Assembly (NCBI GenBank): GCA_046539325.1
Contig: JBKHHD010000005.1
Coordinates: 2,165 to 66,164 of the forward strand
Length of the DNA: 64,000 bases
Source of the DNA: Candidatus Aenigmatarchaeota archaeon
GTDB lineage: Archaea > Aenigmatarchaeota > Aenigmatarchaeia > PWEA01
Direction of reading: 5' to 3'
Numbering within the stretch: the stretch's first letter is position 1; the number at the start of each line of letters is the position of its first letter. This document shows, piece by piece, positions 18,507-36,561 of the stretch. Position numbers and translations under genes: made by a program. Below the pieces are notes generated by a model. That model had not been told where the DNA came from, ran no database searches, and saw only the letters and a list, made by a program, of their open reading frames with translations.

Positions 18507-19358
18507 TTATTCAATTACCTCGTCGGGTACTTGACATGTTTCCTCGTTTCCTGTAGAAGTCCACTGACATTCCAAACCAGAACAACAGTCTTCATCATTG
18601 TCGCATACTTCATCTGCATCTGCACATACTTTTGTAAAGTTCGCTGTGATAGACATATCCTGGAAAACGGTGAGTGTACAGGGATTCGCAAATTGCCCGT
18701 CTTCACAGTGTGTACCATCTCCTTTCCATTGGTTAAAACCGTAATCATCATCCTCGGCTTCAGCTTCAATGGTCACCTCTTCGCCTGTTTGAGGATACTT
18801 ATGCTCACCGGGTTCAGGAATTGTTGTCCCAACTCCTCCTGTTTCCACAGTTATGTCTAGGATATATGGTTCCTGAAAAGACACCTTAACACTTCTATTC
18901 GTAGACATCGTGACATTGCATTCGTTCCCTTCTGATTCATCACAACCAAGAAGTGCACCCATTATATAATCTTCATTTGGGTAAGCTGTTAGTTCTACCT
19001 TCGTGTCTTCCTCATATTCGTACTTCCCGTTTACTCGTTCTCCCTCGGGGTCTAGGCTTGTATCCCCACCCTCTTCTGGGTAGGGCGTTATGTTTAGATA
19101 CTTGTAATTCTCACTTTCACCATTTTCTTCATTGTCTCCTTCGTTACCCTCGTCTCCACCGTCATTGTCTCCTGTTCCATCCTCACTGCCGCCTCCTAAA
19201 TCGAGACTTGAATCCTCGTCGAACAATTTCTCCTGCGTTTCATTAATCGGCGAAGTGTCAAAACTTGTCCTGAAGAAAGCAATGAGTCCAAGCATGACAA
19301 TACTTAACAGCACTATAGTCACAACAGGTTTTATACCGAAGGATCCTTTGTCTTTCAT
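18507..19358 (-). CDS. Class III signal peptide (pilin-like) secreted protein, acidic with Cys-rich C-terminus
   Basis: MKDKG|SFGIKPVVTIVLLSIVMLGLIAFF N-terminus (ATG 19358, GGAG 8 nt upstream). Gly/Asp/Glu-rich linker and a C-terminal domain with about 10 Cys. Confidence 0.6.
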   Translation of the reverse strand: MKDKGSFGIKPVVTIVLLSIVMLGLIAFFRTSFDTSPINETQEKLFDEDSSLDLGGGSEDGTGDNDGGDEGNEGDNEENGESENYKYLNITPYPEEGGDTSLDPEGERVNGKYEYEEDTKVELTAYPNEDYIMGALLGCDESEGNECNVTMSTNRSVKVSFQEPYILDITVETGGVGTTIPEPGEHKYPQTGEEVTIEAEAEDDDYGFNQWKGDGTHCEDGQFANPCTLTVFQDMSITANFTKVCADADEVCDNDEDCCSGLECQWTSTGNEETCQVPDEVIE

Positions 19359-19438
19359 ACACAACTCCTTATATTATACCTACTTGTTAGTTTTTTAATA
19401 GTTTGTTATAAGAACGCTTTGATAATTCTATAGGCTCT

Positions 19439-19792
19439 TTAGTAATTTTCGCAAGGTCTACAAGCCACTTCAATACATACATCGGAATACTGGCCACAAT
19501 CTCTTTCGTGTGTACAACCATCCTGGGTTTTGGGACACGTACTTTCTGTTATATTCCAACTACTGCATACATCCTCACAGTTTATATTATCGCCTCCATT
19601 TCCATCATTTTCTTCACCACCTCCTTCCCCGTCTTCATCTCCGTTTGTCAGGTTGCTTTCAATTTCTTTGAAGGGTGAATTATCCCAGCCATCTAGTAAA
19701 AGGGTTGCTGCTGCTGCTAGGACTATTATCATAATAATTAAACCAAGGAGGCTGCTTATAGTAAATTCAAAACCTTTACTTGAAGAGATCAT
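19439..19792 (-). CDS. Class III signal peptide (pilin-like) small Cys-rich protein
   Basis: MISSSKG|FEFTISSLLGLIIMIIVLAAAATLLL. C-terminal 8 Cys. Confidence 0.55.
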   Translation of the reverse strand: MISSSKGFEFTISSLLGLIIMIIVLAAAATLLLDGWDNSPFKEIESNLTNGDEDGEGGGEENDGNGGDNINCEDVCSSWNITESTCPKTQDGCTHERDCGQYSDVCIEVACRPCENY

Positions 19793-20054
19793 TGTGCCTG
19801 TCTGTTTGGATTTCCTGTCTTCTGATCAATTTTCCATGCGGGGTTATCTGATGAATATCATAATGGGTAGGTGAAATGGATAGCTCAGGTAAAAGATCTT
19901 CAGCATCGCTTGCAGTTTCGTTTACTGCTTCTTCTTTCCAGGCAGAGGTGAAAAGTGCGACGATGGCCAGGAGCACTATTATAGCCAGTGTCAGGACAAC
20001 CACAGCCTTAATAGGCATCGATACTCCTTTTGAAAGTTCAGTATTTTTCTTCAT
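19776..20054 (-). CDS. Class III signal peptide (pilin-like) small protein
   Basis: ATG 20054 gives MKKNTELSKG|VSMPIKAVVVLTLAIIVLLAIVALF. The ATG overlaps the upstream gene's stop as ATGA. Confidence 0.55.
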   Translation of the reverse strand: MKKNTELSKGVSMPIKAVVVLTLAIIVLLAIVALFTSAWKEEAVNETASDAEDLLPELSISPTHYDIHQITPHGKLIRRQEIQTDRHNDLFK

Positions 20055-20338
20055 GTTGGTCCTGTCCCTCCACGGCAACAGATTGCATCTATTTCGCCCC
20101 AATCATCATTCCATTCTTGTTCCTCAATTTCGGTGCATCTATCCGGACCGTTTGTACAACATCCAATTTCCTCGTATTCCTGACAAATAGTTCCTCTGTC
20201 TCCAGTTTCATTCAAATCACCGAGCATACCTTCCGCCGGTTCCATAGCTCCTCCCAAGACTACCGCAAGGACTATGATTGCTAGTATTAAGCCTGGGAGT
20301 GCAGTTTTCCAGCTCAAACCCTTTTTTCTCATCATCAT
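20051..20338 (-). CDS. Class III signal peptide (pilin-like) small Cys-rich protein
   Basis: MMMRKKG|LSWKTALPGLILAIIVLAVVLGG. C-terminal 7 Cys. Confidence 0.55.
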   Translation of the reverse strand: MMMRKKGLSWKTALPGLILAIIVLAVVLGGAMEPAEGMLGDLNETGDRGTICQEYEEIGCCTNGPDRCTEIEEQEWNDDWGEIDAICCRGGTGPT

Positions 20339-20366: not shown

Positions 20367-20630
20367 TTATGTCATAGTCTCGTCGCAGCAAAATTCAAAG
20401 GGATCCTCTTCTCTTTCCCAGCCCAGTTGATCTTGTTGACATCTCTCTAAGTCTGGTTCCTGGCAGCAGCCCCTCCTTACATACTCTATGCAGTCATTAG
20501 CTCCCTCATGGACGTCGTTCGTCTCATCTCCTCCAAGGGAAAGTGCTAAAAGCAGCACAACAATTACAGCTGAAATCAGAACTAACCCACGTTTCGAGAT
20601 CTTTACCTTTGTACCAGGTATCTTGGGCAT
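20367..20630 (-). CDS. Class III signal peptide (pilin-like) small Cys-rich protein
   Basis: Start at ATG 20630 gives MPKIPGTKVKISKRG|LVLISAVIVVLLLALSLGG; the longer ORF to 20720 is likely an over-call. C-terminal CC..C..CC pattern. Confidence 0.5.
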   Translation of the reverse strand: MPKIPGTKVKISKRGLVLISAVIVVLLLALSLGGDETNDVHEGANDCIEYVRRGCCQEPDLERCQQDQLGWEREEDPFEFCCDETMT

Positions 20631-20667: not shown

Positions 20668-20832
20668 TTAGAAAGGGACGAGGGCATCGAGAAAGTCGAG
20701 CAAACCGTCGATGTTTGCACTTATCGCACCTGTTATTCCTTCAGCAATGATAAACATCACTAGTAAGGCGAGGACCACGTAAACAACTAATTCCATGGCC
20801 TTAATTCCTTTTTTACCTGAAAACCAGTCCAT
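20668..20832 (-). CDS. Mini-pilin: 54 aa class III signal peptide protein (absent from the ORF track, below 60 aa)
   Basis: Hand translation gives MDWFSGKKG|IKAMELVVYVVLALLVMFIIAEGITGAISANIDGLLDFLDALVPF with a TAA stop. It sits directly downstream of a conserved promoter motif (20855-20884). Confidence 0.55.
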   Translation of the reverse strand: MDWFSGKKGIKAMELVVYVVLALLVMFIIAEGITGAISANIDGLLDFLDALVPF

Positions 20833-20854: not shown

Positions 20855-20884
20855 TTTTTAAGTTTAAAGTGAAATCATTGCATG
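20855..20884 (-). promoter_or_regulatory. Conserved promoter/regulatory motif (minus-strand sense CATGCAATGATTTCACTTTAAACTTAAAAAA), copy 1
   Basis: A near-identical 29-30 nt element recurs at 23248-23276. It contains a TTTAAAC/TTAAAA TATA-like core 23-37 nt upstream of ATG 20832. Confidence 0.5.
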
Positions 20885-20956: not shown

Positions 20957-23161
20957 CTACGTAATAATTCTACATTCAGCACCTCCACATCTTCCCCCGC
21001 CACCGTCATCGTTATCATCTCCATCATCAGAGCCTTCAAGATATTCTGTAACACAAACCTCTCCGCCGTCTTCATCCCCACTCCCTTTGTCGCCTCTATG
21101 CCCGTCGATATCGTCGAGTATGTCACCATTTGCTTCCCAGCCACCACCTTGACCGTCTTGGTCCCAACTCCCGGAGGATACACCATCACCACCATCACCA
21201 CCACATTCATAATGATTAGAATTATCATACGGACAGTCTCCGTTCCCATCATCACCCTCATATTCTGGAGAGCCTGACCATCCACCATCACCGCCTCTTG
21301 CTCCTCCTCCACCACCATATTCAAAAATTGTGGCCTTATGGCCCGCACCACCACCACCGCCGGCTGCAGCTAAAAACTCTTCACTCCCATCATCGTACTT
21401 TAACCATAGTTCGGTTGATCCTCCACCTCCACCTGCTTCACTTCCTCCGTAACCACGATTTCCCCCATCTCCACCGTCGGGTTTTCCATAACCACCACTT
21501 TCCTTGTATCGCTGGCTGCCTGCATTTCCAATAGATATATTAAGGTTTACTTCTTCGTCTATAGTGAATGCACCTTGCACGTAGCCCCCTTCACCACAAT
21601 CTCCATCTTTGCCTGGGTCTCCACCGTCGGCACCATAAACCTCTATCTCGTAGTTCCCGGGGTCGAGTTCCAATGCATCATCACCTACATAGTCGTAACA
21701 TTCTGTGTTCACGCTTAGTTCGGTGAATTCAGCTGTTATCTCTTTGTCTCCGTCCATTTCAACAGTCAGTTCTTCACTTCCATTTCTTTCGTCGCCTGTC
21801 CATTTATCCAGACTCCAATCAGGAATATCCGGGTGTGCTTTGAGGGTTATTTCCTCGCCTTCTGGTACGTAGGTTATTCCAGGAGAAGGGACTGTGTAAC
21901 CTCCTTTTGGATTTTTTACATCTATTTTGAGGACCTTCAATTCTACATCCGTATAGTTCCTCCCACTGTTGAAGGTCCAGGTGTGCTCGAAGTCCCATCC
22001 ATATTCTAGGCCCTCCGTCCTTGTATCTGTGTAAGTGGTCTTACTTTCCATGACTTCTGTTTTCTTCGGTGTTCCAGCTCCTCCATGTGGATCCTTAGTG
22101 ATGCCTGCTGTATCGTAGTTCCAGAAAGAGTTTCCTACAACGGAATCACTGTTACTGTATCCTATAAGTCCATTGATATCATTCCCGCCAGTTACTTGAC
22201 CCGTTGAATATGCATTGTATACTATTCCTGATGCTGACGTGTATCCTACCAGTCCACCTACACACCACCCATTGCCATTGACATGTCCTGTAGAATATGA
22301 ATCTAATACTATCCCACTATTACTTCCCACGAGGCCTCCTGTGTTGTTTTTTTCTCCAGAAATATTACCAGAGGAGTACGATTTAAAAATATCTCCACTG
22401 TTGTATCCTACTAGTCCACCTACGTTACTATGTCCATCAATGGTTGCCGAAGATGAAGAACTTGAAATTTTTCCATCGTTGTATGCTACTAGTCCCCCGG
22501 CCCTTAGGAATGAGTCTTCATCTGAAGCCGTATTTTTGGTAATTATTTTGCCTCTGACCCTTGAATTTAATATATCTCCCCAGTTGACACCTATCAATGC
22601 AGCGACTCTGTCCTCTCCACGGATACTTACATTTACTAGTTCTAAGTTTTTGATTTCTGATGAATCATTGGTATGAGCGAAAAGTGCCGCGTCTTGACTA
22701 GACCTATCTATGTGTAAATCCGTTATTTTATGCCCTTGTCCGTGTAATTCCCCCTTAAATTGGTGGTCAGGCCAGTCGCCTATTGGTTCAAACCCATCGC
22801 CATTGTTCCACTCCTTTGTTCCACTGCAGTCTATGTCGTTTTCGAGATAGTAATTTCCTCCTAGGTCCTCGTTTATATTCTGAAGTTCTTGACAGCTTTC
22901 TATTGCTGTGGCATCATCTGGCGGATCTCCGGTCCTGTCCTTTGGGTGTATGTTCTGCCATTGAAGTATAGGATACTTTGTTCTGTGCTCTACTAGGTCC
23001 TCACTCCGTCTTTCACCAGTATCCGTTAGGTCACTGGAACCTTCTTGTAGCATGTCGCCTAGCTCTGTGAAAATAACACCAACTACCAGAAGTGCTATTA
23101 CGGCTCCTACTACTAGTCCAAGGGTGAATTCAACTCCAGAACGGCCGAGGAACATTGACAT
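20957..23161 (-). CDS. Large class III signal peptide surface protein with GLUG-type repeats and Gly/Asp-rich C-terminal tail
   Basis: N-terminus MSMFLGRSG|VEFTLGLVVGAVIALLVVGVIF. Central repeats (GGLVGYNSGDI, TGGLVGSNSGIV, VGGLVGYTSASGIV, INGLIGYSNSD) followed by SFWNYDTAGI, as in the GLUG motif family. Last ~200 aa are low-complexity G/D/E (GGGGGAGHK..., GGDGGDG...). Confidence 0.6.
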   Translation of the reverse strand: MSMFLGRSGVEFTLGLVVGAVIALLVVGVIFTELGDMLQEGSSDLTDTGERRSEDLVEHRTKYPILQWQNIHPKDRTGDPPDDATAIESCQELQNINEDLGGNYYLENDIDCSGTKEWNNGDGFEPIGDWPDHQFKGELHGQGHKITDLHIDRSSQDAALFAHTNDSSEIKNLELVNVSIRGEDRVAALIGVNWGDILNSRVRGKIITKNTASDEDSFLRAGGLVAYNDGKISSSSSSATIDGHSNVGGLVGYNSGDIFKSYSSGNISGEKNNTGGLVGSNSGIVLDSYSTGHVNGNGWCVGGLVGYTSASGIVYNAYSTGQVTGGNDINGLIGYSNSDSVVGNSFWNYDTAGITKDPHGGAGTPKKTEVMESKTTYTDTRTEGLEYGWDFEHTWTFNSGRNYTDVELKVLKIDVKNPKGGYTVPSPGITYVPEGEEITLKAHPDIPDWSLDKWTGDERNGSEELTVEMDGDKEITAEFTELSVNTECYDYVGDDALELDPGNYEIEVYGADGGDPGKDGDCGEGGYVQGAFTIDEEVNLNISIGNAGSQRYKESGGYGKPDGGDGGNRGYGGSEAGGGGGSTELWLKYDDGSEEFLAAAGGGGGAGHKATIFEYGGGGGARGGDGGWSGSPEYEGDDGNGDCPYDNSNHYECGGDGGDGVSSGSWDQDGQGGGWEANGDILDDIDGHRGDKGSGDEDGGEVCVTEYLEGSDDGDDNDDGGGGRCGGAECRIIT

Positions 23162-23247: not shown

Positions 23248-23276
23248 TTTTAAGTCTAAAGTTAAATCATTGCATG
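23248..23276 (-). promoter_or_regulatory. Conserved promoter/regulatory motif, copy 2 (minus-strand sense CATGCAATGATTTAACTTTAGACTTAAAA)
   Basis: Matches the 20855-20884 element at about 26 of 29 positions. Lies ~90 nt upstream of ATG 23161, with GGAG 7 nt before the ATG. Confidence 0.5.
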
Positions 23277-23320: not shown

Positions 23321-24415
23321 CTAAGGATCATCCTGACAAACACATCTATCATGCATCCCTGACACACTTTTACAGTCCTTCCACTCGTACTCGCCTTTTG
23401 TTGCTCCTGTTTTTATACACTTATAATCTTGGTCACATTCGTCACCAGAATCGGAGCCATCGCCACATCCATCACCGCTCTCATCCACCGATTCACAGGC
23501 CATTACTTCGCCCTCACAACACATCTTCTGGTTACCATCCCACGTTGCACCTGAGTCCTTGCACTCATCACCAACTTCGCATTCGTCTTCGTCACACCCA
23601 TCCTCATCATCCTCGTCACCATTATCTCTTGAATAAGATGAGGGTTGAATAGTTTGTGAAGAGCTGTATTCGTCCTTGATCAATACCTTTGGTTTTTGCA
23701 TATTACCTTTTAGATCAACGGAGTAGGAAATATCATATACCTCGACATTGCATTTTACTTTTGTCATAGCATAGCCACTTTTTGTATCGCCCCATGAATT
23801 GATACAATTGTCTGCATTATCGTCTGGTTCCCATTTACGCCTGTCGGAAGAAACATCTTCTTGATAACAGGGATTTTCTGATTGTTGAACCACTTCCTTG
23901 TATCCCCTGCACTGACAGTACTGGTCTACATCATCCCAGGAACCTGTCATGCTCGAGCCACATTCGCCCCAGCCTGTAAAATCCCGGGCATTAACGTCTA
24001 CAGGGAAGTCAACCACCACAGGTTCTAAAGACTTCTCCACATGCAAATAGTTAACACTGAGGCTCATATACTGCTGAGGGTCCTCTCCGTCACCGGTCAT
24101 TTCTGTACCGTTTAGGCTGTCTAAATAGCTCTTAATTTTTTCCTCTATGTCGTCAATTCCAGGTTCACCATCTTCCTCCGAATAGGCTTCTCTTGTTCCA
24201 AGCCACACTGCATCATCGACGAGATCTCTTGAACTATCATACCTCAACTTCGCGTTTATGGTTTCTGATTGCTCCAGGCCTATTCGACCTGCACCAGTAG
24301 ATCCAGTAACCAGCACTGTAAATGCCACCGCCAGTCCTCCCCCTACGATTACTGCACTGACTACTCCAACCACTAATAAGCTTATAGCTCCACTTTCGGA
24401 TGACATTTTTGACAT
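23321..24415 (-). CDS. Class III signal peptide (pilin-like) protein with acidic, Cys-rich extracellular region
   Basis: ATG 24415 gives MSKMSSESG|AISLLVVGVVSAVIVGGGLAVAFTVLV. More than 25 Cys in CxC/CC clusters in the C-terminal half; many D/E. Confidence 0.55.
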   Translation of the reverse strand: MSKMSSESGAISLLVVGVVSAVIVGGGLAVAFTVLVTGSTGAGRIGLEQSETINAKLRYDSSRDLVDDAVWLGTREAYSEEDGEPGIDDIEEKIKSYLDSLNGTEMTGDGEDPQQYMSLSVNYLHVEKSLEPVVVDFPVDVNARDFTGWGECGSSMTGSWDDVDQYCQCRGYKEVVQQSENPCYQEDVSSDRRKWEPDDNADNCINSWGDTKSGYAMTKVKCNVEVYDISYSVDLKGNMQKPKVLIKDEYSSSQTIQPSSYSRDNGDEDDEDGCDEDECEVGDECKDSGATWDGNQKMCCEGEVMACESVDESGDGCGDGSDSGDECDQDYKCIKTGATKGEYEWKDCKSVSGMHDRCVCQDDP

Positions 24416-24468: not shown

Positions 24469-24936
24469 TCAACCGCCTGCATTTTTATCGACAAGTATTG
24501 CCCTACCAAGCTTCTCATTTCCTAATAGGATGGTTCTTGAGGCCACTTCTTTTCTTGGATCATCCGGTCTTCCATGGATATATGTATTGCCTTGGTATTC
24601 AAAACGAATATAATAGTTGTCACCATTCTCCCCCTGAAATTTATTCTCCAAATCTTCTATTTCATCGTCTATGTCATCATTACGGCCGTTGTAGGTGTAG
24701 ATATAATCTATAAACTTCCTGCGGACTGATTCGCCGTTATCGTCCTCCGTTCTCAGGAAGGCACTAAGTACTATTTCATCTGTATGTCTATCGATCTCTT
24801 CAACTTCGATCTCGACATCCCTCTTTAGTTCAACAAAGTAGTTTATCGTGAAAAGTACGAGAAAAAACATAGCAGTGAATATAAGTGTGGCTATGAGTAT
24901 CGTGAACTGCCCTTTTTTGTTTTCTCTATTTATCAT
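24469..24936 (-). CDS. Class III signal peptide (pilin-like) protein
   Basis: MINRENKKG|QFTILIATLIFTAMFFLVLFTI. Confidence 0.55.
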   Translation of the reverse strand: MINRENKKGQFTILIATLIFTAMFFLVLFTINYFVELKRDVEIEVEEIDRHTDEIVLSAFLRTEDDNGESVRRKFIDYIYTYNGRNDDIDDEIEDLENKFQGENGDNYYIRFEYQGNTYIHGRPDDPRKEVASRTILLGNEKLGRAILVDKNAGG

Positions 24937-24946: not shown

Positions 24947-25924
24947 CTAAACCTTTTTCCAGTAAGCTTCTGTGCTTGATCCAGAGTGGACATCACTTAC
25001 ACATTCATACATATCTGCACACTCATTTCCAACGTATTCGAGGTCGCACTTCTCTACTGTCCCGTTGTCGCAACATATCTCTAACTCTTCTCCCCGGGTA
25101 TCATATACCTCAGTGTGATAGAGATCAATATCCTCAAGAATGGTCCGAGAGTAGGTACAGGGTTCTTCACCTGCTTCTACAAAATAACTGGTTTCATCAC
25201 CCTTTTTTACTGCTGAAGTTTCAACATTTTCGTCGAATTCCATCTCTGGTACCTTCAGATTGTAGTCTTTGAATATATAGGTTGCCTTTCCCTTGTCGTC
25301 TATCCTGGCATCTATTTTTAACCTATCACCTGTTTTTCCTTTATCAGACTGGATAGTATGATTTTTATCGAACATAGTTTCCAATTTGAGAGGCTCGCCA
25401 TCTTCATACCAGGCTATCTTCCCTGTCCTGGTAGTAGAGGGTCCGAAATGTGGTGGATGTACCATGTAAAAAGTTGCGGTCCCGAGATTGTTTCCAGATC
25501 CCGTGTCTATAGTCACAGGCACATCCCACTCTGTGATATCTCCTACGACAATATCGCTGAGATCATTACCAAAGCTGTAGTCTTTGTTTTTTTCATGGTC
25601 TTCGACCTCTACGTAAGTCCAGACTGTTGGGTGGTGTGCACAGTCGAGAGCCTCGGTCCCGTCCTTTCTGTTGAGTTTAGCTTCGGAAAGAACTGCCATT
25701 TCGCCTGTCGAGAGGCAATCGGGCGAGGAAAGGATTTCGGCCATTACACTGTTGGCCTGAACCTTGCCCATACTGAAGGAGTACCCTTCAACAGCTATGT
25801 CTGTGGGTGCTATAATGAAATAGTAAAATACAAATACAAAACCTACCAATACTATAGTGTATAGAAGATACCAGATGAAGTCTCCTCCTGAAAGCCCTTT
25901 CACTCTTTCTTTAAAATTCAGCAT
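24947..25924 (-). CDS. Class III signal peptide (pilin-like) protein
   Basis: MLNFKERVKG|LSGGDFIWYLLYTIVLVGFVFVFYYFII. C-terminal Cys cluster. 14-nt overlap with the upstream gene. Confidence 0.5.
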   Translation of the reverse strand: MLNFKERVKGLSGGDFIWYLLYTIVLVGFVFVFYYFIIAPTDIAVEGYSFSMGKVQANSVMAEILSSPDCLSTGEMAVLSEAKLNRKDGTEALDCAHHPTVWTYVEVEDHEKNKDYSFGNDLSDIVVGDITEWDVPVTIDTGSGNNLGTATFYMVHPPHFGPSTTRTGKIAWYEDGEPLKLETMFDKNHTIQSDKGKTGDRLKIDARIDDKGKATYIFKDYNLKVPEMEFDENVETSAVKKGDETSYFVEAGEEPCTYSRTILEDIDLYHTEVYDTRGEELEICCDNGTVEKCDLEYVGNECADMYECVSDVHSGSSTEAYWKKV

Positions 25925-27799: not shown

Positions 27800-27946
27800 T
27801 CAATACTCCAGCACTGACAATGCTGTTTCTATAGTAGGCTCGAGTGTATAGTAAATTATACCTACTATAAGGGCCAGTAAGATAAGAATTGCAATTATTT
27901 TCAGAGGATCCTTTGTTGTATTTGATATATCATAAAAAGTTGACAT
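27800..27946 (-). CDS. Possible 48 aa single-TM protein (not in ORF track)
   Basis: Hand translation gives MSTFYDISNTTKDPLKIIAILILLALIVGIIYYTLEPTIETALSVLEY. Tightly packed, with 1-2 nt gaps to both neighbours in the same orientation. Confidence 0.3.
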   Translation of the reverse strand: MSTFYDISNTTKDPLKIIAILILLALIVGIIYYTLEPTIETALSVLEY

Positions 27947-27947: not shown

Positions 27948-28094
27948 TTATATTCCCCTAATTCTATGTATCAGTAGATCTGATATATTTCCCAAAGAGC
28001 CTTCTGCAGTTAGAATTAAAGCCGTGGCAATCGCGAGAATTATAAGTGCCCCTATCAGAAACAATATCGTACTGCTGAATCCCTTTCTTTTCAT
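27948..28094 (-). CDS. Mini-pilin: 48 aa class III signal peptide protein
   Basis: ATG 28094 gives MKRKG|FSSTILFLIGALIILAIATALILTAEGSLGNISDLLIHRIRGI. The longer ORF call to 28145 would overlap the next mini-pilin. Confidence 0.5.
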   Translation of the reverse strand: MKRKGFSSTILFLIGALIILAIATALILTAEGSLGNISDLLIHRIRGI

Positions 28095-28102: not shown

Positions 28103-28276
28103 CTAGATCAGATTGCCTAAAAACTGCATCATGTTTCCTATCCATCCTTCACCGGAGCCGATTATATCAGTCCCAATTAAAAAGAGCATTCCAACGAGTA
28201 TTACAACTGCTATTATTGCAACGAGCACTTCTAAAGACATCTTCCCCTTTTTAAGAAATCTAGCTTTGTTCAGCAT
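28103..28276 (-). CDS. Mini-pilin: 57 aa class III signal peptide protein (not in ORF track)
   Basis: Hand translation gives MLNKARFLKKG|KMSLEVLVAIIAVVILVGMLFLIGTDIIGSGEGWIGNMMQFLGNLI with a TAG stop at 28103-28105. Confidence 0.5.
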   Translation of the reverse strand: MLNKARFLKKGKMSLEVLVAIIAVVILVGMLFLIGTDIIGSGEGWIGNMMQFLGNLI

Positions 28277-29540: not shown

Positions 29541-30896
29541 TTATACAGGTGTACATGAACATTTCACACTACTACAATCCTCACCTAAATTCGCAGTTAC
29601 CTCTTCATTACAGTCCTTGTCATATGTATAACAACTATTTTCTGCGCTATTCCAACCGCTACCAACAGCGTTCGCGGGGTCCGTTCCTCCGTATGCACCT
29701 CCTGAAACTTCGCAGTGCTCACCACCGCAGGTAACACCTTCTAGCTCCTCCTCACACCATTCTTCGCAGGAGTCTATTTGTTCTTTACCTGTGGAATAAC
29801 AATCTCCTTCACTTTCCCCGCCATTCTCCACTTCTGGTTCGTATTCTTCATCCACCTCCCAATAATATCTTTTTTCGGCTTTGCAGCTACAGTATGGATC
29901 TTCCTCGCTTGCCTTCTCTTGTCTATTTGTTCGAGCCTGTGTTTCAGGACATAAATCCTCTGATTTCCTGTACTCTTCTGGAAGTAGATCGTAATTTTCT
30001 ACCGGGGTTTCGCTGCAGGTCGAACCCCAGAAGATTTCCTCCTCGTCGTTGCAGTAGTCCCTACATGCTTTATCGACCATGGAGTCCGCTTCCTCTTCGT
30101 TTCTTCCATCTGACTTGCAGACCACTGGTGCCGCAAACCGAAATTCAGTACTTTCCTCGGACACGTTTTGAAGCAGCATTCTCTGTGAGCTGTGGCCTCC
30201 TGAAAATGAAACGCTGTCGCCTATTTCAATATCTTCGACGGGACCATCAAAGTCATCACCATATCTCTCGTAGCCTTGTAATGTATCTTCTATACTTCCT
30301 TCACTGTTGTTGAGAACCGATCCTTCTCCGGCCTTCCATACTGCACAATTGTAATTGCCGTCGTTGTCTTTTTGAACAGAAACTATTAAGCACGCTTCCG
30401 CGTCCTGTATCCCACTGAAACCACCTAGATCTTCTTTGTCCTCTTCCTCTATAATTTCCTCGCATGCGTCAAACCCTCCAGTGTGGTCAAAGCCCGTTGC
30501 CTTGTATTTAAGATGCATCGCAGGATTTTGTTTTGTAAGGTGGAATTCATATATATTCTCAGGACCCCCGGCTGTATGAACATGCATGTACTTCCCATTC
30601 CTCTGATCAACGCCACAGTAACACCCGGCTGCCGCAGGCTTTGCCATACCCGCTCTAGCCTTGTCTATTATTATATCGGACCAGCTTACGCTTCCTCCTA
30701 GCCATGAAGGCCACCATGCCCACCTGCTGTAATCCTCCGCTTCGTGGTGTATGTTGCAATAAATGTCACATCCGTATGTATTCATAAAAATTGGTTCGAC
30801 CATCATCCAGAAAATATCAAGTATTACAGTTACGCCTAAAAGTGCCAGGATTATAACTACTAAAACCATCGCACCGATACCTTTTTTATTTGACAT
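29541..30896 (-). CDS. Class III signal peptide protein, member 2 of the paralog triplet (extra Cys-rich C-terminal extension)
   Basis: MSNKKG|IGAMVLVVIILALLGVTVILD. Motifs GCYCGVDQRNGKYMHVH, EFHLTKQNPAMHLKY, FAAPVVCKS, CSCKAEKRYYWEVDEEYEPE. Confidence 0.6.
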   Translation of the reverse strand: MSNKKGIGAMVLVVIILALLGVTVILDIFWMMVEPIFMNTYGCDIYCNIHHEAEDYSRWAWWPSWLGGSVSWSDIIIDKARAGMAKPAAAGCYCGVDQRNGKYMHVHTAGGPENIYEFHLTKQNPAMHLKYKATGFDHTGGFDACEEIIEEEDKEDLGGFSGIQDAEACLIVSVQKDNDGNYNCAVWKAGEGSVLNNSEGSIEDTLQGYERYGDDFDGPVEDIEIGDSVSFSGGHSSQRMLLQNVSEESTEFRFAAPVVCKSDGRNEEEADSMVDKACRDYCNDEEEIFWGSTCSETPVENYDLLPEEYRKSEDLCPETQARTNRQEKASEEDPYCSCKAEKRYYWEVDEEYEPEVENGGESEGDCYSTGKEQIDSCEEWCEEELEGVTCGGEHCEVSGGAYGGTDPANAVGSGWNSAENSCYTYDKDCNEEVTANLGEDCSSVKCSCTPV

Positions 30897-30901
30897 CTCA
30901 A

Positions 30902-31108
30902 TCAGAATGCTATACCGAATTTATCCGTGACGAAATAAACTATTACAAATACTATCAATACCAGTATTAATATCGCTATGGCGGATAAGATCGAACTTTC
31001 GCTTGCTTCCTGCAAAAATACACACCAAATAACGTTTTCGAACGGAGTTAAATATATTTTGTCCTTGCCTTTGCCTCGTCTACTCGTCTTTAGGTTCGTA
31101 CTCTTCAT
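30902..31108 (-). CDS. Possible small C-terminally anchored membrane protein (uncertain start)
   Basis: The ORF in this gap ends ...SSILSAIAILILVLIVFVIVYFVTDKFGIAF. The upstream part of the 140 aa call overlaps the next gene out of frame, so only the 3' portion is proposed. Confidence 0.2.
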   Translation of the reverse strand: MKSTNLKTSRRGKGKDKIYLTPFENVIWCVFLQEASESSILSAIAILILVLIVFVIVYFVTDKFGIAF

Positions 31109-32171
31109 CCACCTGCCAGTAGTATTCTTTTTCGACAACGCACTGGCAGTAGGGGCTTTCGAATTCATCGGGACAGAAATCCTCTTCCTTTGTATATTTT
31201 TCCGGGAGTTCGTCGTAGTCTCTGAGGGCTGTATCGCTACATTTGGACTGCCAGAAACCCATATCTTCCTCGCTGCAGTATTCAGCACAGGCCTTGTCGA
31301 ACTCTGTCTCAGGATCCTGTTCAACGGATTCGGATTTGCAGACTACAGGAGCATATAAATCAAAGGGGCGTTCTCCTTCCCAGTATTGACGGAGCAGTAT
31401 CTTCTGGAAGGCAGGTTTATCACCTTTTACCTCTACTTGTTGGCCTATTTCCAGTTGAAGTGGGTTATTGTCAGTGCCGGACGTCAAACGTCTACTGTTG
31501 GGCTTTAAATGGATCATTGAACTAAGAGATTCCCCTTCTTTGTTCCACAGAGCTGAGCCTTCTTGTGCGCCATATATAGTGCAGCTCTCACTGCCATCCT
31601 TCATGGAAACTATTACACAGCCTTCGTATTCTCCTAGGTCTTCAAGTCCTGTGAACTCGTCACTGTCTTCCATTTCATCTTTACAGTTCTCCAGGCCATC
31701 CGTTTGCCTGTTTCCGTCTGCGTGGTCGAACTCGGCTGCGGCTTTTTTATTTGCATAGTACTGGAGATGCAGCTTGGGATTTTGATCAGTTATATGGAAC
31801 TCCTTCACCGTTCCGTCGTCTGCGTTTCCGTGAATATGTATATATTTACCACTCCTCTCGGAAACACCGCAGTAACATCCCATGGCTTTGGGATCTATAT
31901 TTTGCTTTAGTTTGTCCAAGGCGACTTCAAAAGTCGTTTTTCGGCCCCACCACTGGTCGTCACCTATACCTATTATATTCCAGCCACTGAGTCCTTCTAC
32001 ATCCGTCTGTATACTGCAGAATTTATTACATGCCCTGTCCATGGTGTCAAATCCGGCGAAGGCCGCAAAGATAGGCTCCATAACCCCTGCATAAAGAACT
32101 CCGCTGAGTAAAAACATCACTATGGCTATTACGAAAAGCAACATAGGCAATCCCCCCTTTTTGTTAATCAT
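31080..32171 (-). CDS. Class III signal peptide protein, member 3 of the paralog triplet
   Basis: MINKKGG|LPMLLFVIAIVMFLLSGVLYAG. Motifs GCYCGVSERSGKYIHIH, EFHITDQNPKLHLQY, YAPVVCKS, CQCVVEKEYYWQVDEEYEPKDE. Confidence 0.6.
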   Translation of the reverse strand: MINKKGGLPMLLFVIAIVMFLLSGVLYAGVMEPIFAAFAGFDTMDRACNKFCSIQTDVEGLSGWNIIGIGDDQWWGRKTTFEVALDKLKQNIDPKAMGCYCGVSERSGKYIHIHGNADDGTVKEFHITDQNPKLHLQYYANKKAAAEFDHADGNRQTDGLENCKDEMEDSDEFTGLEDLGEYEGCVIVSMKDGSESCTIYGAQEGSALWNKEGESLSSMIHLKPNSRRLTSGTDNNPLQLEIGQQVEVKGDKPAFQKILLRQYWEGERPFDLYAPVVCKSESVEQDPETEFDKACAEYCSEEDMGFWQSKCSDTALRDYDELPEKYTKEEDFCPDEFESPYCQCVVEKEYYWQVDEEYEPKDE

Positions 32172-32213: not shown

Positions 32214-34313
32214 TCACAGTCCTTCACCCAGAAGTCCAGCTATCTGTGTACCGAAGACCTCCCAGACAACTACAAGTGAAAAGGAGTAAACGATTACCCC
32301 GATGAGTATCATAAATCCTGCAGCCTTCCTCTTAGCTACCTTGTCGCCCGGTCCGTTCTCCACACCTGCAGTAAGCATCGCCAGTAGGTAGGAGGTCTGT
32401 ATAACGTAAATTCCTACAACGATCTGAAGTATGTATAAGGGCATCATTTCACCCGCGGCTCCCCATCCGCCGACAAGCATACCGTCCATGCCTATTCCCG
32501 CCATGCCTCCTATCCCTACATCACCTTCGGTTGCCTGGCCCAATCCCTCCATCGCTTCTCCTATGCCCCGGAATATAGACATCATTATCGCGGCCATCGC
32601 GACCGAGACACCTGCTACGAACGGGCCAAGGAAGGAACCTAGAAACTGCATGGAAGTTGTCTCCGAAGAAAGCATATTTTTGAGGTCTCCCTCTATTTCG
32701 TCCAACTGTTCGAGATACTTGGATATGGAGATGGCCGATCTTGAAGCTATTCTCGATCCTTTTTCCGTGGCATCGACGACTATCTTCATGACTGAGGTCA
32801 CAAGGTCCGATGGATATTGCCATACAGCACCGAAGTTCTTATCAAAGAATGCGTTTCTAAGGTCCATTCCCCCTTTCCTCATATTTTTAACAACCTTTCT
32901 GAACATGTTAGATATCTCCAGGTCTTCGTTTCTCTGGACTGTGTCTTCTGCGGCTCTCTCTATGGGCTTCCCGAGGTCCATTCTGTTGCCGAGAGAAAAC
33001 AACGCCTTCGAAAACTCGTCCTCTATGTTCTTTATACTCTCCCGTAGCTCGATCTTTGCCCTCGTATCCAGAAGAAAGTAGCTGGATGGTCCGATCGCGA
33101 TACCTCCGGTGATAACTAGCGAGGTCACTATCTGTCTGAAGAGGTCCTCACCTGCATGGAATTTCACCAAGTAGATCCCTAGAAGTATTACAGGAAGGGA
33201 TAGAATAAGGGATATGGGCCATATTTTGATGGTTTTATCTCCCAGTTTCATCATTCCCGAAGGGATATGGTCTGGATGTTTTGATATATCAGGCGTCGAA
33301 AATCCCATTGGCCTGTACTCCAAAGTCCTTTTACCTGTCAGGTATATTATCAGCGGGAGAATTATGTTGTACCCGATAAAGAGGAAAGCTGGCCTTACAG
33401 TATCCTCTAGCATGAGTATTATTATGGGAAACATAACCAGTACCATGATAGGAAGCATTATACCGAGCATATGTATGATCATAATAGGCAGTTCCAGCTT
33501 GTTGGAGTATTCCTTCATCATCTCCCTCGAACCGGACATCATCGTGTTTATACCTTCGTCAAGCATAGCCTTCCTCTTCTCCTTCGACTGTTCCATGGAG
33601 TTCTGGATAACCTGCATGGCCTCAACGAAGGGTTTGTTGTCCTGCCATTTCTCCAGGTAGTCGGACAACGCTTCTTTCATGGATATATATTTTCCTGTCT
33701 CGACATCCCAGAGCATCTTCTTGAAGTCGAGGGAAAGGGGTTCTCCGAGGTGCTCTGCAGTGAACTTTATAGCTCCTTCAAGGTTTGGCGATGTTCGCAT
33801 ATATATGACCATATATATTATGGCCAGCATTATCTGATCAGCAGCTTTAACTCGGAAAAGACGTGCTTGGGAGTTCGGATATTCAGCCAGCAGGTAGATT
33901 GCAACGGCCCCGAGCATGAATATCAGGAGACCGAAAACTATAGAAGCTATTCCGAAGGCCATCAGGATTATGCCTGCCAAGAAGATCATAAGCCCAGAAA
34001 GAACAGCCAAGGAATAGGCTCCCGGGGGCGTTATCTGCATGTATGCCATATCTATTGATCGCTGCAGCTCCTCCTTTTTGTCTTCAGATGGTTCAATCAC
34101 AACTATGTCTTCGGCTATGTTGCAGAGCTTTTCGTACAGCGACTTCTCTCTGTGTTTTTCCTCTTCTTTGATGAAGGTGTTGTACTCCCTGGATGTAAAG
34201 GTCCTATTTTCCTCACCGGGTAGCTTCAAATCCTTTTTTCCTTCCTCAACTATGTTGTCTATCTCTTTCTCCCATTCATCCTCGAAATTGTCCTCAGGCA
34301 TTCTTGAATTCAC
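32214..34313 (-). CDS. Polytopic membrane platform protein of a type IV pilus/archaellum-like system (FlaJ/TadC/GspF family)
   Basis: 699 aa with two blocks of multiple TM helices separated by cytoplasmic domains, the size and architecture of FlaJ/TadBC fusions. Immediately downstream of, and overlapping, the FlaI-like ATPase gene. Confidence 0.6.
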   Translation of the reverse strand: MNSRMPEDNFEDEWEKEIDNIVEEGKKDLKLPGEENRTFTSREYNTFIKEEEKHREKSLYEKLCNIAEDIVVIEPSEDKKEELQRSIDMAYMQITPPGAYSLAVLSGLMIFLAGIILMAFGIASIVFGLLIFMLGAVAIYLLAEYPNSQARLFRVKAADQIMLAIIYMVIYMRTSPNLEGAIKFTAEHLGEPLSLDFKKMLWDVETGKYISMKEALSDYLEKWQDNKPFVEAMQVIQNSMEQSKEKRKAMLDEGINTMMSGSREMMKEYSNKLELPIMIIHMLGIMLPIMVLVMFPIIILMLEDTVRPAFLFIGYNIILPLIIYLTGKRTLEYRPMGFSTPDISKHPDHIPSGMMKLGDKTIKIWPISLILSLPVILLGIYLVKFHAGEDLFRQIVTSLVITGGIAIGPSSYFLLDTRAKIELRESIKNIEDEFSKALFSLGNRMDLGKPIERAAEDTVQRNEDLEISNMFRKVVKNMRKGGMDLRNAFFDKNFGAVWQYPSDLVTSVMKIVVDATEKGSRIASRSAISISKYLEQLDEIEGDLKNMLSSETTSMQFLGSFLGPFVAGVSVAMAAIMMSIFRGIGEAMEGLGQATEGDVGIGGMAGIGMDGMLVGGWGAAGEMMPLYILQIVVGIYVIQTSYLLAMLTAGVENGPGDKVAKRKAAGFMILIGVIVYSFSLVVVWEVFGTQIAGLLGEGL

Positions 34314-36561
34314 CGGACTTTATCTGCTCCTTGAGCCATTCCTCCCATCTTTCAAAGGTCTCATCGGGATCAACGTATCCCACTTCGTCACTCACCTCGT
34401 CCATTATTAGTCGGAACTTACTGTTGCTCTTTACGACGAAGGGAGCTTCCATCAGCTCTTCGTTACCGGTTTCAAGCGCGTAGTCGCTTATGGCCTTCTT
34501 TACCTTTCCTCTAAGTTCTATGTTTTCCCAGACACGGTCCCATCTACCGGCCCATTCCTTCACCTGTGATGATATCTTGTTCAGGACCTGTGATTCGCCG
34601 TTTAGAAGCGTATCAGTGGGCTTGAGTCTATCTTCCTCGGCCGAGTACTCCATGAGAGGTACGAATCCGTCTTCGTCCCTTGGATCCTCGGACCAGTGCT
34701 TCCTTACTTCGGTGACACCCGTCACTCTTCTTATTTCTTGAAGGCCAGAGGCGCTTTTGATTCTATTGCATATAACAATTAGATCAGTCGCCTTGAAGGA
34801 AGTCTTTGGAACGCCTAGATCGTGTACTACACGGTCGAAGAGACCGTAGGCGGACTCGCCATGTATTGTTCCTGCCACGGTCTTAGCCATGGCCCCTATA
34901 CGCATCGCCTCGTAAAGCGCCTGAGCCTCTGTACTCCTTACTTCACCTATTATAAGTGCTGAGTCACCAAGACGTAGCGCAGTTCTTATTGATTCTGATG
35001 CAGGGAGTTCCGTCTCGACCTGCGTAATTACTGAGCGTGACTTCAGGCGCTGTGCGTCGTAGCCCAGCTTCTTCAGAGTTTTTACAGGAAGCTCTAGTGT
35101 ATCCTCGGATGTTATGACCCTCCAGTCTCTCTTCATCTCGAGCATGGACGCACCGAGCAGGGAAGTCTTTCCAGAGCCTCTTCCACCACCGATAAGGAAC
35201 GTCCTTCCGCCATCTATCACAAAGCTCATGAGTCCTGCGAATAGCGGGCTTATGTAACCTATATCTGGCTGTAAGTAGAGGGGGTAGGTCCACGGATCTT
35301 CCCTGTGTCTTCTCAGAGCTAAGCCAAGGCCTTCAGGAGCCAGTGTCGGAGCTATGACGGTTACCCTCGCATTTCCACCGGGTACTTCTACTGATGTATC
35401 TAGAACTGGGTTTGCCTCATCAAGAGGCCTACCACTTGAAAGTCTTAGCTTCGTCGCCCAGCTTTCAGCATCGTCCTGTGTAGGAATTATGTTGGTTCTG
35501 CATTCGCCATAGTCTTCGTGATTTATGAAGATAGGTTTACTCCCCAGAGGTGAGTTTATGTATATATCCTGGACCTTTTCGTCTTCAAGTATTGCCTCAA
35601 GAATACCTAGTCCTCCTGTATATCTACTTAGTATTGAATTCAGCCTTTCAATCTGCTCAGGTTCCAGGTCTGTGCCTTCCCTTTCGGCTATATCCTTTAT
35701 GAGATCCTTCCCTATGGAGGAGAAAACCTCCCTCGATCTCTCTGACTCGGCAAACTCTGTAGTCTCTGGTCTGTGCTCGCTCAGATACCTCTGCGCAGCG
35801 TCAAGTATACTGTATTCACCTTCTTCTAGCTTGAACTCCGGTGGCGAGAAGTGATACAGCGGTCTTGTTTCGTCAGGAAGATTATATACTTCAATATCAG
35901 AGCTGCCAACTTCGTAGTGATCTATCATCCCGCCTTCTTCTGGTGTCTGTTTCATATACTTCGTTCGCATGAAGTTGGGCCTGACTGAAGGGTAGAAGAG
36001 TTCACGGTATGCATCTCTCTGTCCTGGGTGGTATCCAGAAAGCTCACCCTTGACTTCCTTTATCATCCTGGTCTGTTCCAACCTTTCTTTTATCGGTAGA
36101 AGAACTTCGTTCAGGTAAGTTTCCTTGCACTCTTTCTGGGGACCTCCTTCCTTGGTCTGGATCCTAACATGCCTTATTTTCCTTTTAAGGTGGATATAAG
36201 CTCCTACCGGGTCCTTCCTAAGCTCGTCCATTGCAAGTCCTTGAAGCTCCGAGTACTTTTCCTGGAAGTACTGATTACAGTCCGGAACTTCCAATCTTTC
36301 AAGCTTCCTGAGACCGAGTTCTTTCATCACGTCTTTCAGAACTTCGGCTATCTCTACCAGAAGCTTCGTCTGTTCGTAGGGATACTCGTACTCGCGGCTG
36401 TTTTTGAAAAGTACTGTCTTTACTCCCTTGACCTCCATTATCTTGTCTATGGTATTTGCCATACATTCTTCGTAGTCAGCGACACTACTTCCGTAGATAC
36501 ATCCGGAGCAGTTTACCTCTATTCTCTTCTCATCTTCATCGTATTCGTAGTCACAGGGCAT
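34294..36561 (-). CDS. Type II/IV secretion system ATPase (FlaI/PilB/VirB11 superfamily) with long N-terminal extension
   Basis: Walker A GGGRGSGKTS, Asp box/Walker B DSALIIGEVR, His box TIHGES, in the C-terminal ~350 aa. Total 755 aa. First gene of the minus-strand locus. Confidence 0.8.
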   Translation of the reverse strand: MPCDYEYDEDEKRIEVNCSGCIYGSSVADYEECMANTIDKIMEVKGVKTVLFKNSREYEYPYEQTKLLVEIAEVLKDVMKELGLRKLERLEVPDCNQYFQEKYSELQGLAMDELRKDPVGAYIHLKRKIRHVRIQTKEGGPQKECKETYLNEVLLPIKERLEQTRMIKEVKGELSGYHPGQRDAYRELFYPSVRPNFMRTKYMKQTPEEGGMIDHYEVGSSDIEVYNLPDETRPLYHFSPPEFKLEEGEYSILDAAQRYLSEHRPETTEFAESERSREVFSSIGKDLIKDIAEREGTDLEPEQIERLNSILSRYTGGLGILEAILEDEKVQDIYINSPLGSKPIFINHEDYGECRTNIIPTQDDAESWATKLRLSSGRPLDEANPVLDTSVEVPGGNARVTVIAPTLAPEGLGLALRRHREDPWTYPLYLQPDIGYISPLFAGLMSFVIDGGRTFLIGGGRGSGKTSLLGASMLEMKRDWRVITSEDTLELPVKTLKKLGYDAQRLKSRSVITQVETELPASESIRTALRLGDSALIIGEVRSTEAQALYEAMRIGAMAKTVAGTIHGESAYGLFDRVVHDLGVPKTSFKATDLIVICNRIKSASGLQEIRRVTGVTEVRKHWSEDPRDEDGFVPLMEYSAEEDRLKPTDTLLNGESQVLNKISSQVKEWAGRWDRVWENIELRGKVKKAISDYALETGNEELMEAPFVVKSNSKFRLIMDEVSDEVGYVDPDETFERWEEWLKEQIKSGEFKNA

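Follow-up and report, generated by a model that had tools for sequence, protein, structure and literature searches.

Organization of the Locus

We analyzed a 64,000-nt stretch of a Candidatus Aenigmatarchaeota metagenome-assembled genome (MAG; assembly GCA_046539325.1, contig JBKHHD010000005.1, positions 2,165 to 66,164), referred to below as the window, and addressed a minus-strand locus at 18507..36561 that carries the genes of a putative type IV filament machine. The locus begins with a secretion ATPase of the type II secretion/type IV pilus/type IV secretion (T2SS/T4P/T4SS) family (34294..36561, -, 755 aa), followed by a T2SSF/TadC-like polytopic platform protein (32214..34301, -, 695 aa from the ATG at 34301) and, 3' of the platform gene, by 19 consecutive minus-strand open reading frames (ORFs), here called the train. 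The train consists of 17 larger ORFs (54-734 aa) and two tiny ORFs (37 aa and 48 aa), and its products, or cargo, share one feature: each of the 19 has a single hydrophobic helix, located at the N-terminus. The spacing along the locus, in order from the ATPase/platform overlap, was -8, 42, 64, 5, 105, 43, 8, 1, 1, 46, -14, 10, 53, 159, 124, 37, 28, -4, -17, and 80 nt (approximate values that use corrected starts). A first-pass annotation of this DNA had described the ATPase, the platform, and a train in one orientation, and the ORFs, strand, coordinates, and Walker A, Asp box, and His box of the ATPase were all recovered as described, as was an ATGA junction (20051-20054); the two tiny ORFs are absent from that annotation, and its range of 0-50 nt for the intergenic gaps was too narrow, since some gaps measure 64, 80, 105, 124, or 159 nt.

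The window was compared with loci of relatives labelled L002, L003, L004, L005, L006, L039, L040, and L041. L005 belongs to a closed 1.05-Mb Aenigmatarchaeota genome (CP070801.1), L041 is nanohaloarchaeal, and L006, a close relative of the window, contributes only the distal end of the train. The cargo comparison covered 83 proteins from eight loci, with an ATPase identity to the window of 56-80%. The window ATPase was matched at 100% by a protein of Candidatus Aenigmatarchaeota MAG GCA_046540935.1, and its closest relatives, at 80% identity, are encoded on contigs of PWEA01 and PWHK01. PWEA01 is the clade newly named as the halophilic family Haloaenigmatarchaeaceae (PMC13195033; preprint 10.1101/2024.03.10.584303), to which the source MAG is close; members of this family are presumed symbionts, with Halarchaeoplasmatales as the proposed hosts (PMC13195033; preprint 10.1101/2024.03.10.584303).

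Secretion ATPase and Platform

Both core proteins passed a Pfam family model. The ATPase scored 50.3 bits against T2SSE (PF00437; cut-off 24.9, aa 447-601), and the platform scored 29.6 bits against T2SSF (PF00482; cut-off 25.2, aa 166-296). The four nucleotide-binding motifs of the ATPase, namely Walker A GGGRGSGKTS (aa 458-467), the Asp box ITSEDTLEL (aa 483-491), Walker B DSALIIGEVRSTEA (aa 533-546), and the His box AGTIHGES (aa 563-570), all aligned to their counterparts in 2OAP and CpaF. The initial description of the ATPase as FlaI-like was borne out at the superfamily level but not beyond it: the score against the FlaI/ArlI equivalog (NCBIfam NF058587) was 119.4 bits, under the cut-off of 550, and the nearest solved structures were those of Archaeoglobus fulgidus GspE2 (2OAP, 1e-24, query aa 198-629) and CpaF (4e-20), ahead of FlaI (2e-16). 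The score against the CpaF/TadA model (TIGR03819) was likewise under its cut-off (109.1 vs 373 bits), and the likeness to CpaF structures is, as far as sequence comparison goes, of superfamily level only.

The GspE2 alignment spans aa 198-629, so the solved core (aa ~198-629) leaves outside it an N-terminal extension of ~200 aa (aa 1-~197) and a C-terminal extension of ~125 aa (aa ~630-755); searches of the Protein Data Bank (PDB) with the sequences of these two extensions gave no significant match. Among 8000 candidates scored, 5333 were ATPase homologues at E<=1e-10. The best 120 of them, mostly from Aenigmatarchaeota and Nanohaloarchaea, were nearly all ~740-785 aa in length, with 97-100% coverage and 51-82% identity, and the length exceptions in this set were three longer intein-bearing sequences. 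These three (P0078, P0081, and P0093; 912-1269 aa) carry the intein/LAGLIDADG Pfam domains PF14890 and PF14528 and were for this reason read as intein-containing alleles. By these alignments, the extensions are a family-wide property and not a peculiarity of the window gene, and the long N-terminal extension, at first singled out as unusual, is shared by nearly all of the best 120 homologues. Variable N- and C-terminal domains of archaeal type IV filament (TFF) ATPases have been argued to track the type of subsystem (preprint 10.64898/2026.04.22.720090). A four-Cys motif (C3, C18, C21, and C33; aa 3-33, 36463..36555, -) was also observed at the N-terminus of the ATPase. Most of the homologues inspected keep these four Cys, but P0027 (Nanohaloarchaea) and P0036 have other residues in their place; the motif may represent a facultative zinc site.

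For the platform, an alternative GTG start at 34313 would give 699 aa; the ATG at 34301, which is also the start in the NCBI record, is more likely, and with this start the platform gene and the end of the ATPase gene overlap by 8 nt (ATGCCTGA). The T2SSF family was matched at E<=1 in all four platform orthologues tested, and platform identity in the relatives was 43-69%. A hydropathy scan gave eight hydrophobic segments, two of which overlap each other, with segments in both halves of the protein. A second T2SSF stretch was reported only at E<=1, which is a weak indication, and comparison of the two halves by BLASTP for internal duplication found no similarity. The platform had no match in the PDB by sequence.

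Leader Sequences of the Cargo

The N-termini of the cargo were examined for the arrangement of class III signal peptides, in which a short basic leader has Gly or Ala as its last residue and a hydrophobic helix of ~20 aa comes directly after it. A [KR]G dipeptide was present in the leader of 15 of the 17 larger ORFs, and the other two carry S-G. When the leaders were shuffled, [KR]G occurred on average 6.2 times and at most 14 times, and none of 20,000 shuffles reached 15. A search for M-x(0-14)-[KR]G with a hydrophobic helix after it gave 15 occurrences on the locus strand and four in the rest of the 64-kb window, both strands included. Across the eight loci, an N-terminal helix was present in 83 of 83 cargo proteins and [KR]G in 54 of 83; in 45 of 64 cases, the residue directly after the last basic one was Gly. 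Orthologues keep the KG while the adjoining residues differ. Retention of KG amid changing neighbors is not predicted by the positive-inside rule alone and points to a processing site; we regard the conserved [KR]G before the helix as a probable prepilin-peptidase site.

The small cargo proteins offer a further comparison. Glu stands at position +5 after the Gly in two small window proteins (G/KMSLE and G/IKAME, where the slash follows the Gly), a placement that we take to resemble the G/xxxxEY motif of Flp; this Glu is not conserved in the orthologues.

A stand-alone pilin-like gene was also observed ~11 kb from the locus (7232..7540, +, 102 aa), next to a 96-aa ORF (7696..7986). Its product begins MAAKKG/IALPINMLVILAVAVIVLL.., contains GQWDPG, ends in a Cys-rich tail with NNCC, and is similar to the small Cys-rich cargo proteins; no Pfam family was matched.

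The Cargo Genes

The platform gene is followed by three paralogues of one lineage-specific Cys/His-rich family, with products of 363, 451, and 371 aa. The first paralogue (31080..32171, -, 363 aa) combines a KG leader and a long N-terminal helix with a Cys/His-rich globular domain; the second (29541..30896, -, 451 aa) has an additional Cys-rich C-terminal tail; and the third (28320..29435, -) is 371 aa long from MKKG, its ORF reaching a GTG at 29474. The NCBI entry for the first paralogue (P0121, 354 aa) begins after the KG leader. Between the first and second lies the gene of a tiny single-helix membrane peptide (30902..31015, -, 37 aa) with a TTG start and no KG, whose orthologues measure 37 aa (L002) and 33 aa (L003). 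The spacing of the locus tags ACLFQ8_01285 to _01320 suggests that the two tiny ORFs of the train are unannotated in the public record.

In the Cys/His-rich family, C99, C101, C185, and C278 were invariant in 32 of 32 sequences, and C48, C52, C163, and C197 were conserved in at least 90%, with more Cys invariant among the 12 closest members; of the histidines, H112 and H126 were invariant, and H135 and H150 were conserved in at least 90%. The domain occurred in 28 cluster representatives among 1.84 billion. An AlphaFold2 (AF2) model of the 363-aa paralogue from 32 sequences reached a pLDDT of 84.4 and a pTM of 0.76, whereas six sequences gave a pLDDT of 38.9 and no usable model. The usable model shows an N-terminal helix of ~50 residues and an alpha/beta head, which is the "lollipop" layout of pilins; comparison with solved and with viral structures gave no match to the fold of the head. 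In other Aenigmatarchaeota, the first gene after the platform encodes ~65 aa with a helix and a CxxxC...CxC knot, and the N-terminal CxxxC...GCxCG of the paralogues recurs in post-platform proteins of ~63-75 aa in these organisms as C-x3-C...GFCGC. This shared CxxxC motif suggests that a small Cys-knot pilin was expanded in the present lineage. A bolder proposal is that in Haloaenigmatarchaeaceae the first post-platform pilin gene was elaborated into three paralogues with a ~300-aa Cys/His-rich, possibly metal-binding, host-recognition or envelope-attacking tip, and that the tiny leaderless or KG-less helices are assembled without processing by a prepilin peptidase; we consider this combination unlikely, and, if true, the peptidase-free assembly would depart from the defining scheme of type IV filaments.

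Downstream of the paralogues lie three tandem genes for helix-only proteins. The first is pilin-like (28103..28276, -, 57 aa; ..FLKKG/KMSLEVLVAII..) and has orthologues of 60 aa (L002) and 57 aa (L003); the second, also pilin-like (27948..28094, -, 48 aa; MKRKG/FSSTILFLIGAL..), and the third, a single-helix protein with no KG (27800..27946, -, 48 aa; MSTFYDISNTTKDPLKIIAILILL..), both have orthologues in L002, L003, and L006. They are followed by a gene for a KG leader, a helix, and a small Cys-rich domain with eight Cys (27400..27798, -, 132 aa; orthologues of 36-38% identity in L002, L003, and L006) and by one for a KG leader, a helix, and an adhesin-like domain of GLUG repeats (25911..27353, -, 480 aa; Pfam Glug 6e-10). 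The "STGE" protein (24947..25924, -, 325 aa) is the most widely conserved of the train, with tblastn matches in L002, L003, L004, L006, L039, and L040, and its six word-index homologues are all hypothetical proteins. Next come a protein with a KKG/QFTIL leader and a helix (24469..24936, -, 155 aa) and a protein with an S-G leader, a helix, a "YDxx..L..W.G" segment, and an acidic Cys-rich C-terminus of ~18 Cys (23321..24415, -, 364 aa), whose "YDxx..L..W.G" motif is common to L003, L004, L039, and L040.

The largest cargo protein (20957..23161, -, 734 aa) is adhesin-like and joins an S-G leader and a helix to an M26_N region, GLUG repeats, and an ALK/LTK-type glycine-rich domain (Pfam ALK_LTK_GRD 6e-13, Glug 6e-13, and Peptidase_M26_N 8e-6, the last under its gathering score). 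We take the Peptidase_M26_N region to be the N-terminal region of the IgA1-protease (M26) type. The distal part of the train encodes a further helix-only pilin-like protein (20668..20832, -, 54 aa; ..SGKKG/IKAMELVVYVV..); a protein with a KRG leader, a helix, and a small Cys-rich domain with a CC-x(n)-C motif (20367..20630, -, 87 aa), which has relatives in L006; one with a KKG leader, a helix, and a small Cys-rich (GCC) domain (20051..20338, -, 95 aa); one with an SKG leader and a helix (19776..20054, -, 92 aa), whose ATG overlaps the stop of the previous gene in the ATGA noted above; and one with an SKG/FEFT leader, a helix, a "GWDxxP" motif, and a tail that is first Gly/Asp-rich and then Cys-rich (19439..19792, -, 117 aa). 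The last gene of the train (18507..19358, -, 283 aa) encodes a DKG leader, a helix, and a divergent InlB B-repeat surface domain (Pfam Flg_new_2, 1.4e-13). Three helix-only proteins (28103..28276, 27948..28094, and 20668..20832) are candidate filament subunits.

Among the 83 cargo proteins, the only families recognized with Pfam and NCBIfam were of adhesin type: GLUG, M26_N, ALK_LTK_GRD, and Flg_new_2. The composition of the locus had been called unusual. This held for Cys (2.76% vs 1.08% in other window proteins), and low K/R and high Gly were likewise observed relative to the other window proteins; the excess of N-x-S/T sequons was modest (0.70 vs 0.48 per 100 aa). The acidity is not special to the cargo, because D+E amounted to 16.8% in the cargo and 19.3% in 28 other window proteins and the family is halophilic; it reflects the halophily of the whole proteome.

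Two copies of a 29-nt intergenic element (family D11) were found in the window, vs zero expected, and they occupy the two largest gaps of the train. Copy 1, CATGCAATGATTTAACTTTAGACTTAAAA (23248..23276, -), lies 86 nt upstream of the 734-aa gene, and copy 2 (20856..20884, -) lies 23 nt upstream of the 54-aa gene. The consensus, CATGCAATGATTT[A/C]ACTTTA[G/A]ACTTAAAA, includes a TATA-like stretch, and no exact match was found in the related loci fetched. The element is a candidate internal promoter or operator, and its position in the two largest gaps suggests that the train is probably made up of several transcription units and not of one operon.

Conservation in Related Loci

At every locus with 56-80% ATPase identity (L002, L003, L004, L039, L040, L041, and the distal part in L006), the platform was followed by a run of proteins with a single N-terminal helix, and the order of ATPase, platform, and train is kept in both Aenigmatarchaeota and Nanohaloarchaeota. 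The conserved members of the train are the "STGE" protein, the "YDxx..L..W.G" protein, and the three tandem helix-only proteins (57, 48, and 48 aa). Other members vary: the counterpart in L006 of the 480-aa GLUG protein is 140 aa long and has no GLUG domain, and that of the 734-aa protein is 326 aa long. The 480-aa and 734-aa GLUG genes also have DNA repeats in common (families D2 and D8). These size changes and shared repeats suggest that domains were shuffled onto constant pilin-like N-termini. Word-index homologue searches with two cargo proteins returned four and six matches, a low number that we ascribe to fast evolution together with the limits of the method.

In L004 (14394..15337), L039 (9638..10291), and L040 (14384..15649), which represent other Aenigmatarchaeota, the platform is followed by four to seven tiny (37-75 aa) single-helix proteins, several of which start directly with the helix and have no leader. 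L005 has a different layout, with an ATPase of ~750 aa and two coiled-coil genes but no platform gene or train after them, which indicates that the pair of ATPase and coiled-coil genes is separable from the rest of the machine.

Genomic Neighborhood

Divergent from the ATPase gene are two genes for coiled-coil proteins (CCPs; 36668..37072 and 37074..37970, +, 134 and 298 aa), which gave weak matches to many coiled-coil families and neither of which was flagged as a multi-pass membrane protein. They are kept at the same position in L002, L003, L005, and L041. Beside them lie four tandem paralogous genes for proteins with five transmembrane segments (5-TM; 38012..40163, -, 162-183 aa) that share an LPWLLxFAxVYGxL motif and matched no Pfam family. 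The 5-TM paralogues are kept beside the CCP genes in L002, L003, and the nanohaloarchaeal L041, and it is from this synteny only that their association with the system is inferred. They were considered as a 5-TM peptidase of the PibD/FlaK type and rejected, there being no Peptidase_A24 match and no conserved Asp or Glu in an alignment of 11 sequences. Next to these genes (40177..42794, -) are encoded one protein with a transmembrane segment and a coiled coil and two very acidic proteins.

At the other end of the locus, a tRNA-Gly(CCC) gene (18303..18491, +) converges on the train, 15 nt from its last stop; it holds two non-canonical introns, a D-loop intron of 63 nt and a T-loop intron of 48 nt. 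What the first-pass annotation had called a tRNA-like gene gave, when spliced in silico, a perfect 78-nt cloverleaf with an encoded CCA. Gly(ccc) was called in 3657 of 3812 ARAGORN-positive splice variants; the unspliced gene was missed by ARAGORN (also with -i) and by the Rfam tRNA model. The orthologue in L006 (~10880..10990) has the same exons and a T-loop intron only, of a different sequence.

The position beside a tRNA gene had raised the possibility of acquisition as a genomic island, a proposal that was not supported. The downstream flank (FEN1, an RNase H-like protein, an OGG-type glycosylase, and tRNA-Gly) is syntenic in L006, and the upstream flank (CCPs, 5-TM paralogues, and diphthine synthase) is syntenic in L002 and L003. 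Locus and flanks thus occupy the same site in relatives, which argues that the locus is not an island. Housekeeping genes make up the flanks, the scan of locus and flank proteins turned up no integrase, and the repeats reported for the locus include none derived from a tRNA. The GC content was unremarkable (0.42-0.47 in the locus vs 0.43-0.49 in the flanks). Tetranucleotide distance was normal in the ATPase/platform part and rose only over the distal cargo genes (18-28 kb, z=2.1-2.5); repeats rich in Gly, Asp, and Cys can explain this deviation.

Elsewhere in the window (8033..11036, -), a form III RuBisCO large subunit (9777..11036) is encoded ~260 nt from a Glycos_transf_3 protein of the thymidine/AMP-phosphorylase type (8033..9517). 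Such a pair presumably belongs to the archaeal AMP/nucleotide-salvage pathway, and it would fit a reduced, scavenging metabolism.

Comparison with Known Systems

The closest published counterpart is found in the work of Hamm et al. (2024), who described two conserved type-IV-pilus-like loci across cluster-2 DPANN, including Aenigmarchaeota and Nanohaloarchaeota (PMC11291902). These CCP-CpaF-TadC loci comprise coiled-coil proteins together with an ATPase named "CpaF" and a platform named "TadC", and proteomics of Ca. Nanohaloarchaeum antarcticus detected several of the proteins (PMC11291902). In the window, which derives from an Aenigmatarchaeota MAG, an ATPase and a TadC-like platform adjoin two coiled-coil genes, and the same arrangement is found in L002, L003, and L041, with L005 showing part of it. 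The cargo sets the loci apart. In the sections consulted, only FlaF and PilA are named as filament proteins, in one locus, and no mention is made of a long series of KG-helix proteins, of tiny helix-only ORFs, or of the Cys/His-rich and 5-TM paralogues (PMC11291902). Mpg, GroEL, and GatE, the neighbors of "Locus 1" (PMC11291902), were not seen at the window locus. A link to "Locus 1" through the DNA glycosylase was considered and rejected: the glycosylase here is of the OGG/HhH-GPD type, is unlinked to the ATPase in at least 27 Nanohaloarchaeota and other loci, and, among the relatives, is linked only in L006.

The Epd/clade 1 (system 1) pili of Methanococcus maripaludis and Thermococcales likewise combine a complex locus with minor pilins, large adhesin-like proteins, and stand-alone pilin genes. 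The Epd major pilin is very small and has no globular domain, and the system is said to occur in some DPANN (both PMC4858521; preprint 10.64898/2026.04.22.720090). Epd systems differ in having two platform genes and their own 9-TM peptidase, EppA, often within the locus; the window has one 695-aa platform, and no peptidase was found among its polytopic proteins. Neither a DUF2341/PilY-like adhesin nor an Epd pilin family was matched among the cargo scanned. With Tad/Flp pili the window shares an ATPase that matches CpaF (4e-20), a T2SSF platform, and helix-only subunits of ~50 aa; it differs in that no RcpA, TadD, or TadZ-type genes were seen and in that the ATPase carries the additional domains of ~200 and ~125 aa. 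To our knowledge, archaea have no outer-membrane secretin.

The archaellum has an ATPase and a platform of the same superfamilies (FlaI structures, 2e-16). Its ATPase is a minimal form, as described (preprint 10.64898/2026.04.22.720090), whereas the window ATPase has large additional domains. The scan of locus and flank proteins, a subset of the window ORFs, gave no archaellin, FlaF, FlaG, or FlaH family, which agrees with the initial view of the machine as one of the pilus/adhesion type and not an archaellum. This view also accords with published findings on cluster-2 DPANN (PMC11291902). The Sulfolobus bindosome (BasEF, BasABC) likewise unites an ATPase and a platform with small pilin-like proteins and large surface proteins with class III signals; families of sugar-binding proteins were not present in the cargo.

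Proposed Function and Alternatives

Taken together, we propose that the locus is probably an assembly machine for a type IV filament, a Tad/Epd-like pilus, of a halophilic DPANN archaeon. The ATPase, of a hexameric type, would dock on the T2SSF platform, the pair being recognized here by homology. From what the superfamily does, the two would extract helix-anchored proteins from the membrane and polymerize them through the helix, with the 19 downstream genes supplying the substrates. By analogy with Flp and the Epd major pilin, the helix-only proteins of 37-57 aa would be the likeliest bulk subunits, and the larger proteins would act as minor or tip subunits that display GLUG, glycine-rich, InlB-B-repeat, or Cys/His-rich heads. 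Cleavage after the Gly would fall to an A24 peptidase whose gene lies at another place in the genome. The coiled-coil proteins are conserved partners, as published for cluster-2 DPANN (Hamm et al. 2024), and the 5-TM paralogues are conserved neighbors. Given the lifestyle and the adhesin-like domains, the most plausible role would be contact with host cells.

Several observations weigh against this proposal. None of the 83 cargo proteins matched a curated pilin or archaellin family in Pfam and NCBIfam at E<=0.01, and the small window proteins matched no pilin family even at E<=10. A strict FlaFind-like pattern was found in three of 19 proteins in the window and in eight of 83 overall. Many cargo proteins have three to eight polar or charged residues between the Gly and the hydrophobic core, 18 of the 83 have no leader at all, and two members of the window train have neither KG nor SG. 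The annotation of about twenty class III signal N-termini is thus sustained at the level of the motif (19 ORFs, [KR]G in 15 of 17), and because of the missing pilin family match, the polar spacers, and the leaderless members, the assignment is a non-canonical one. As the first-pass annotation had noted for the window, no A24-family peptidase was found among the polytopic window proteins, nor was one found in the annotated ±10-kb flanks of the relatives; a window with no peptidase is common for archaea and hence does not count against the model. Two nanoarchaea are without a prepilin peptidase altogether (Makarova et al. 2016, PMC4858521), and TadV has been reported in some Nanohaloarchaeota (PMC9563170). 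The host of Haloaenigmatarchaeaceae is inferred only (PMC13195033).

The best-surviving alternative is a display of the bindosome or pseudopilus kind, in which a short membrane-proximal scaffold, made by the ATPase and platform from a few small pilin-like proteins, would position large class-III-type adhesins or enzymes at the cell surface, as Sulfolobus Bas does for sugar-binding proteins. Most of what the train encodes is large globular protein, nine of the 19 products measuring at least 283 aa, and the invariant Cys/His set shared by the three paralogues would be consistent with a head that binds metal or acts as an enzyme. Archaeal TFF machines have also been proposed to be widely "functionalised" with binding proteins that bear class III signal peptides (preprint 10.64898/2026.04.22.720090). 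The ATPase does match BasE weakly, but the score of 46.5 bits is far under the cut-off of 1000, and no substrate-binding-protein family was found among the 83 cargo proteins. Moreover, the helix-only subunits of 37-57 aa, typical of Flp and Epd, are conserved in every related locus. We consider such a display unlikely, with a small but real share of the probability.

It could also be argued that the train encodes ordinary surface proteins, of the signal-anchor or Sec type, which are merely co-located with the ATPase and platform and are neither cleaved at KG nor polymerized, a reading with which the missing pilin-HMM match, the non-canonical spacer after the Gly, the leaderless members, and the missing peptidase in the window would agree. 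The positive-inside rule, however, would keep K/R and not the next Gly, yet this Gly was kept in 45 of 64 proteins and [KR]G occurred in 15 of 17 leaders vs a mean of 6.2. The train follows the platform at every locus down to 56% ATPase identity, and the leader pattern is nearly confined to the locus strand (15 vs 4). This explanation is very improbable. Slightly less probable still is a competence-like pilus that imports host nucleic acids or nutrients for a symbiont of reduced biosynthesis, as has been hypothesized for DNA and nutrient import via pili in Nanohaloarchaeota and Undinarchaeota (PMC9563170): the RuBisCO and phosphorylase-type genes in the window and weak ATPase matches to ComGA and to the TadA "conjugal transfer-associated" family speak for it, but both matches are under their cut-offs, the scanned locus proteins gave no match to a ComEC-like channel or to a family of DNA-binding proteins or nucleases, and the large cargo domains are adhesin-type and not DNA-binding.

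With assembly of a filament as the preferred interpretation, the core of the system (ATPase, platform, and CCPs) and the hypothesis of host contact are already published, and it is the cargo proteins that are uncharacterized and have for the most part been left without annotation. A study of Nanohaloarchaeota stated that it had no pilins annotated (PMC9563170), and standard annotation under-calls loci of this kind, as illustrated here by the tiny ORFs, a start placed after the KG leader, and a tRNA gene with two introns. How DPANN archaea recognize and attach to their hosts is an open question, and very few of them have been cultivated. For one halophilic lineage, the window sets out 19 candidate substrates in gene order, among which the likely filament subunits, the adhesin-like proteins with domains shuffled between genes and species, and the lineage-restricted Cys/His-rich domain are candidates for determining host specificity.

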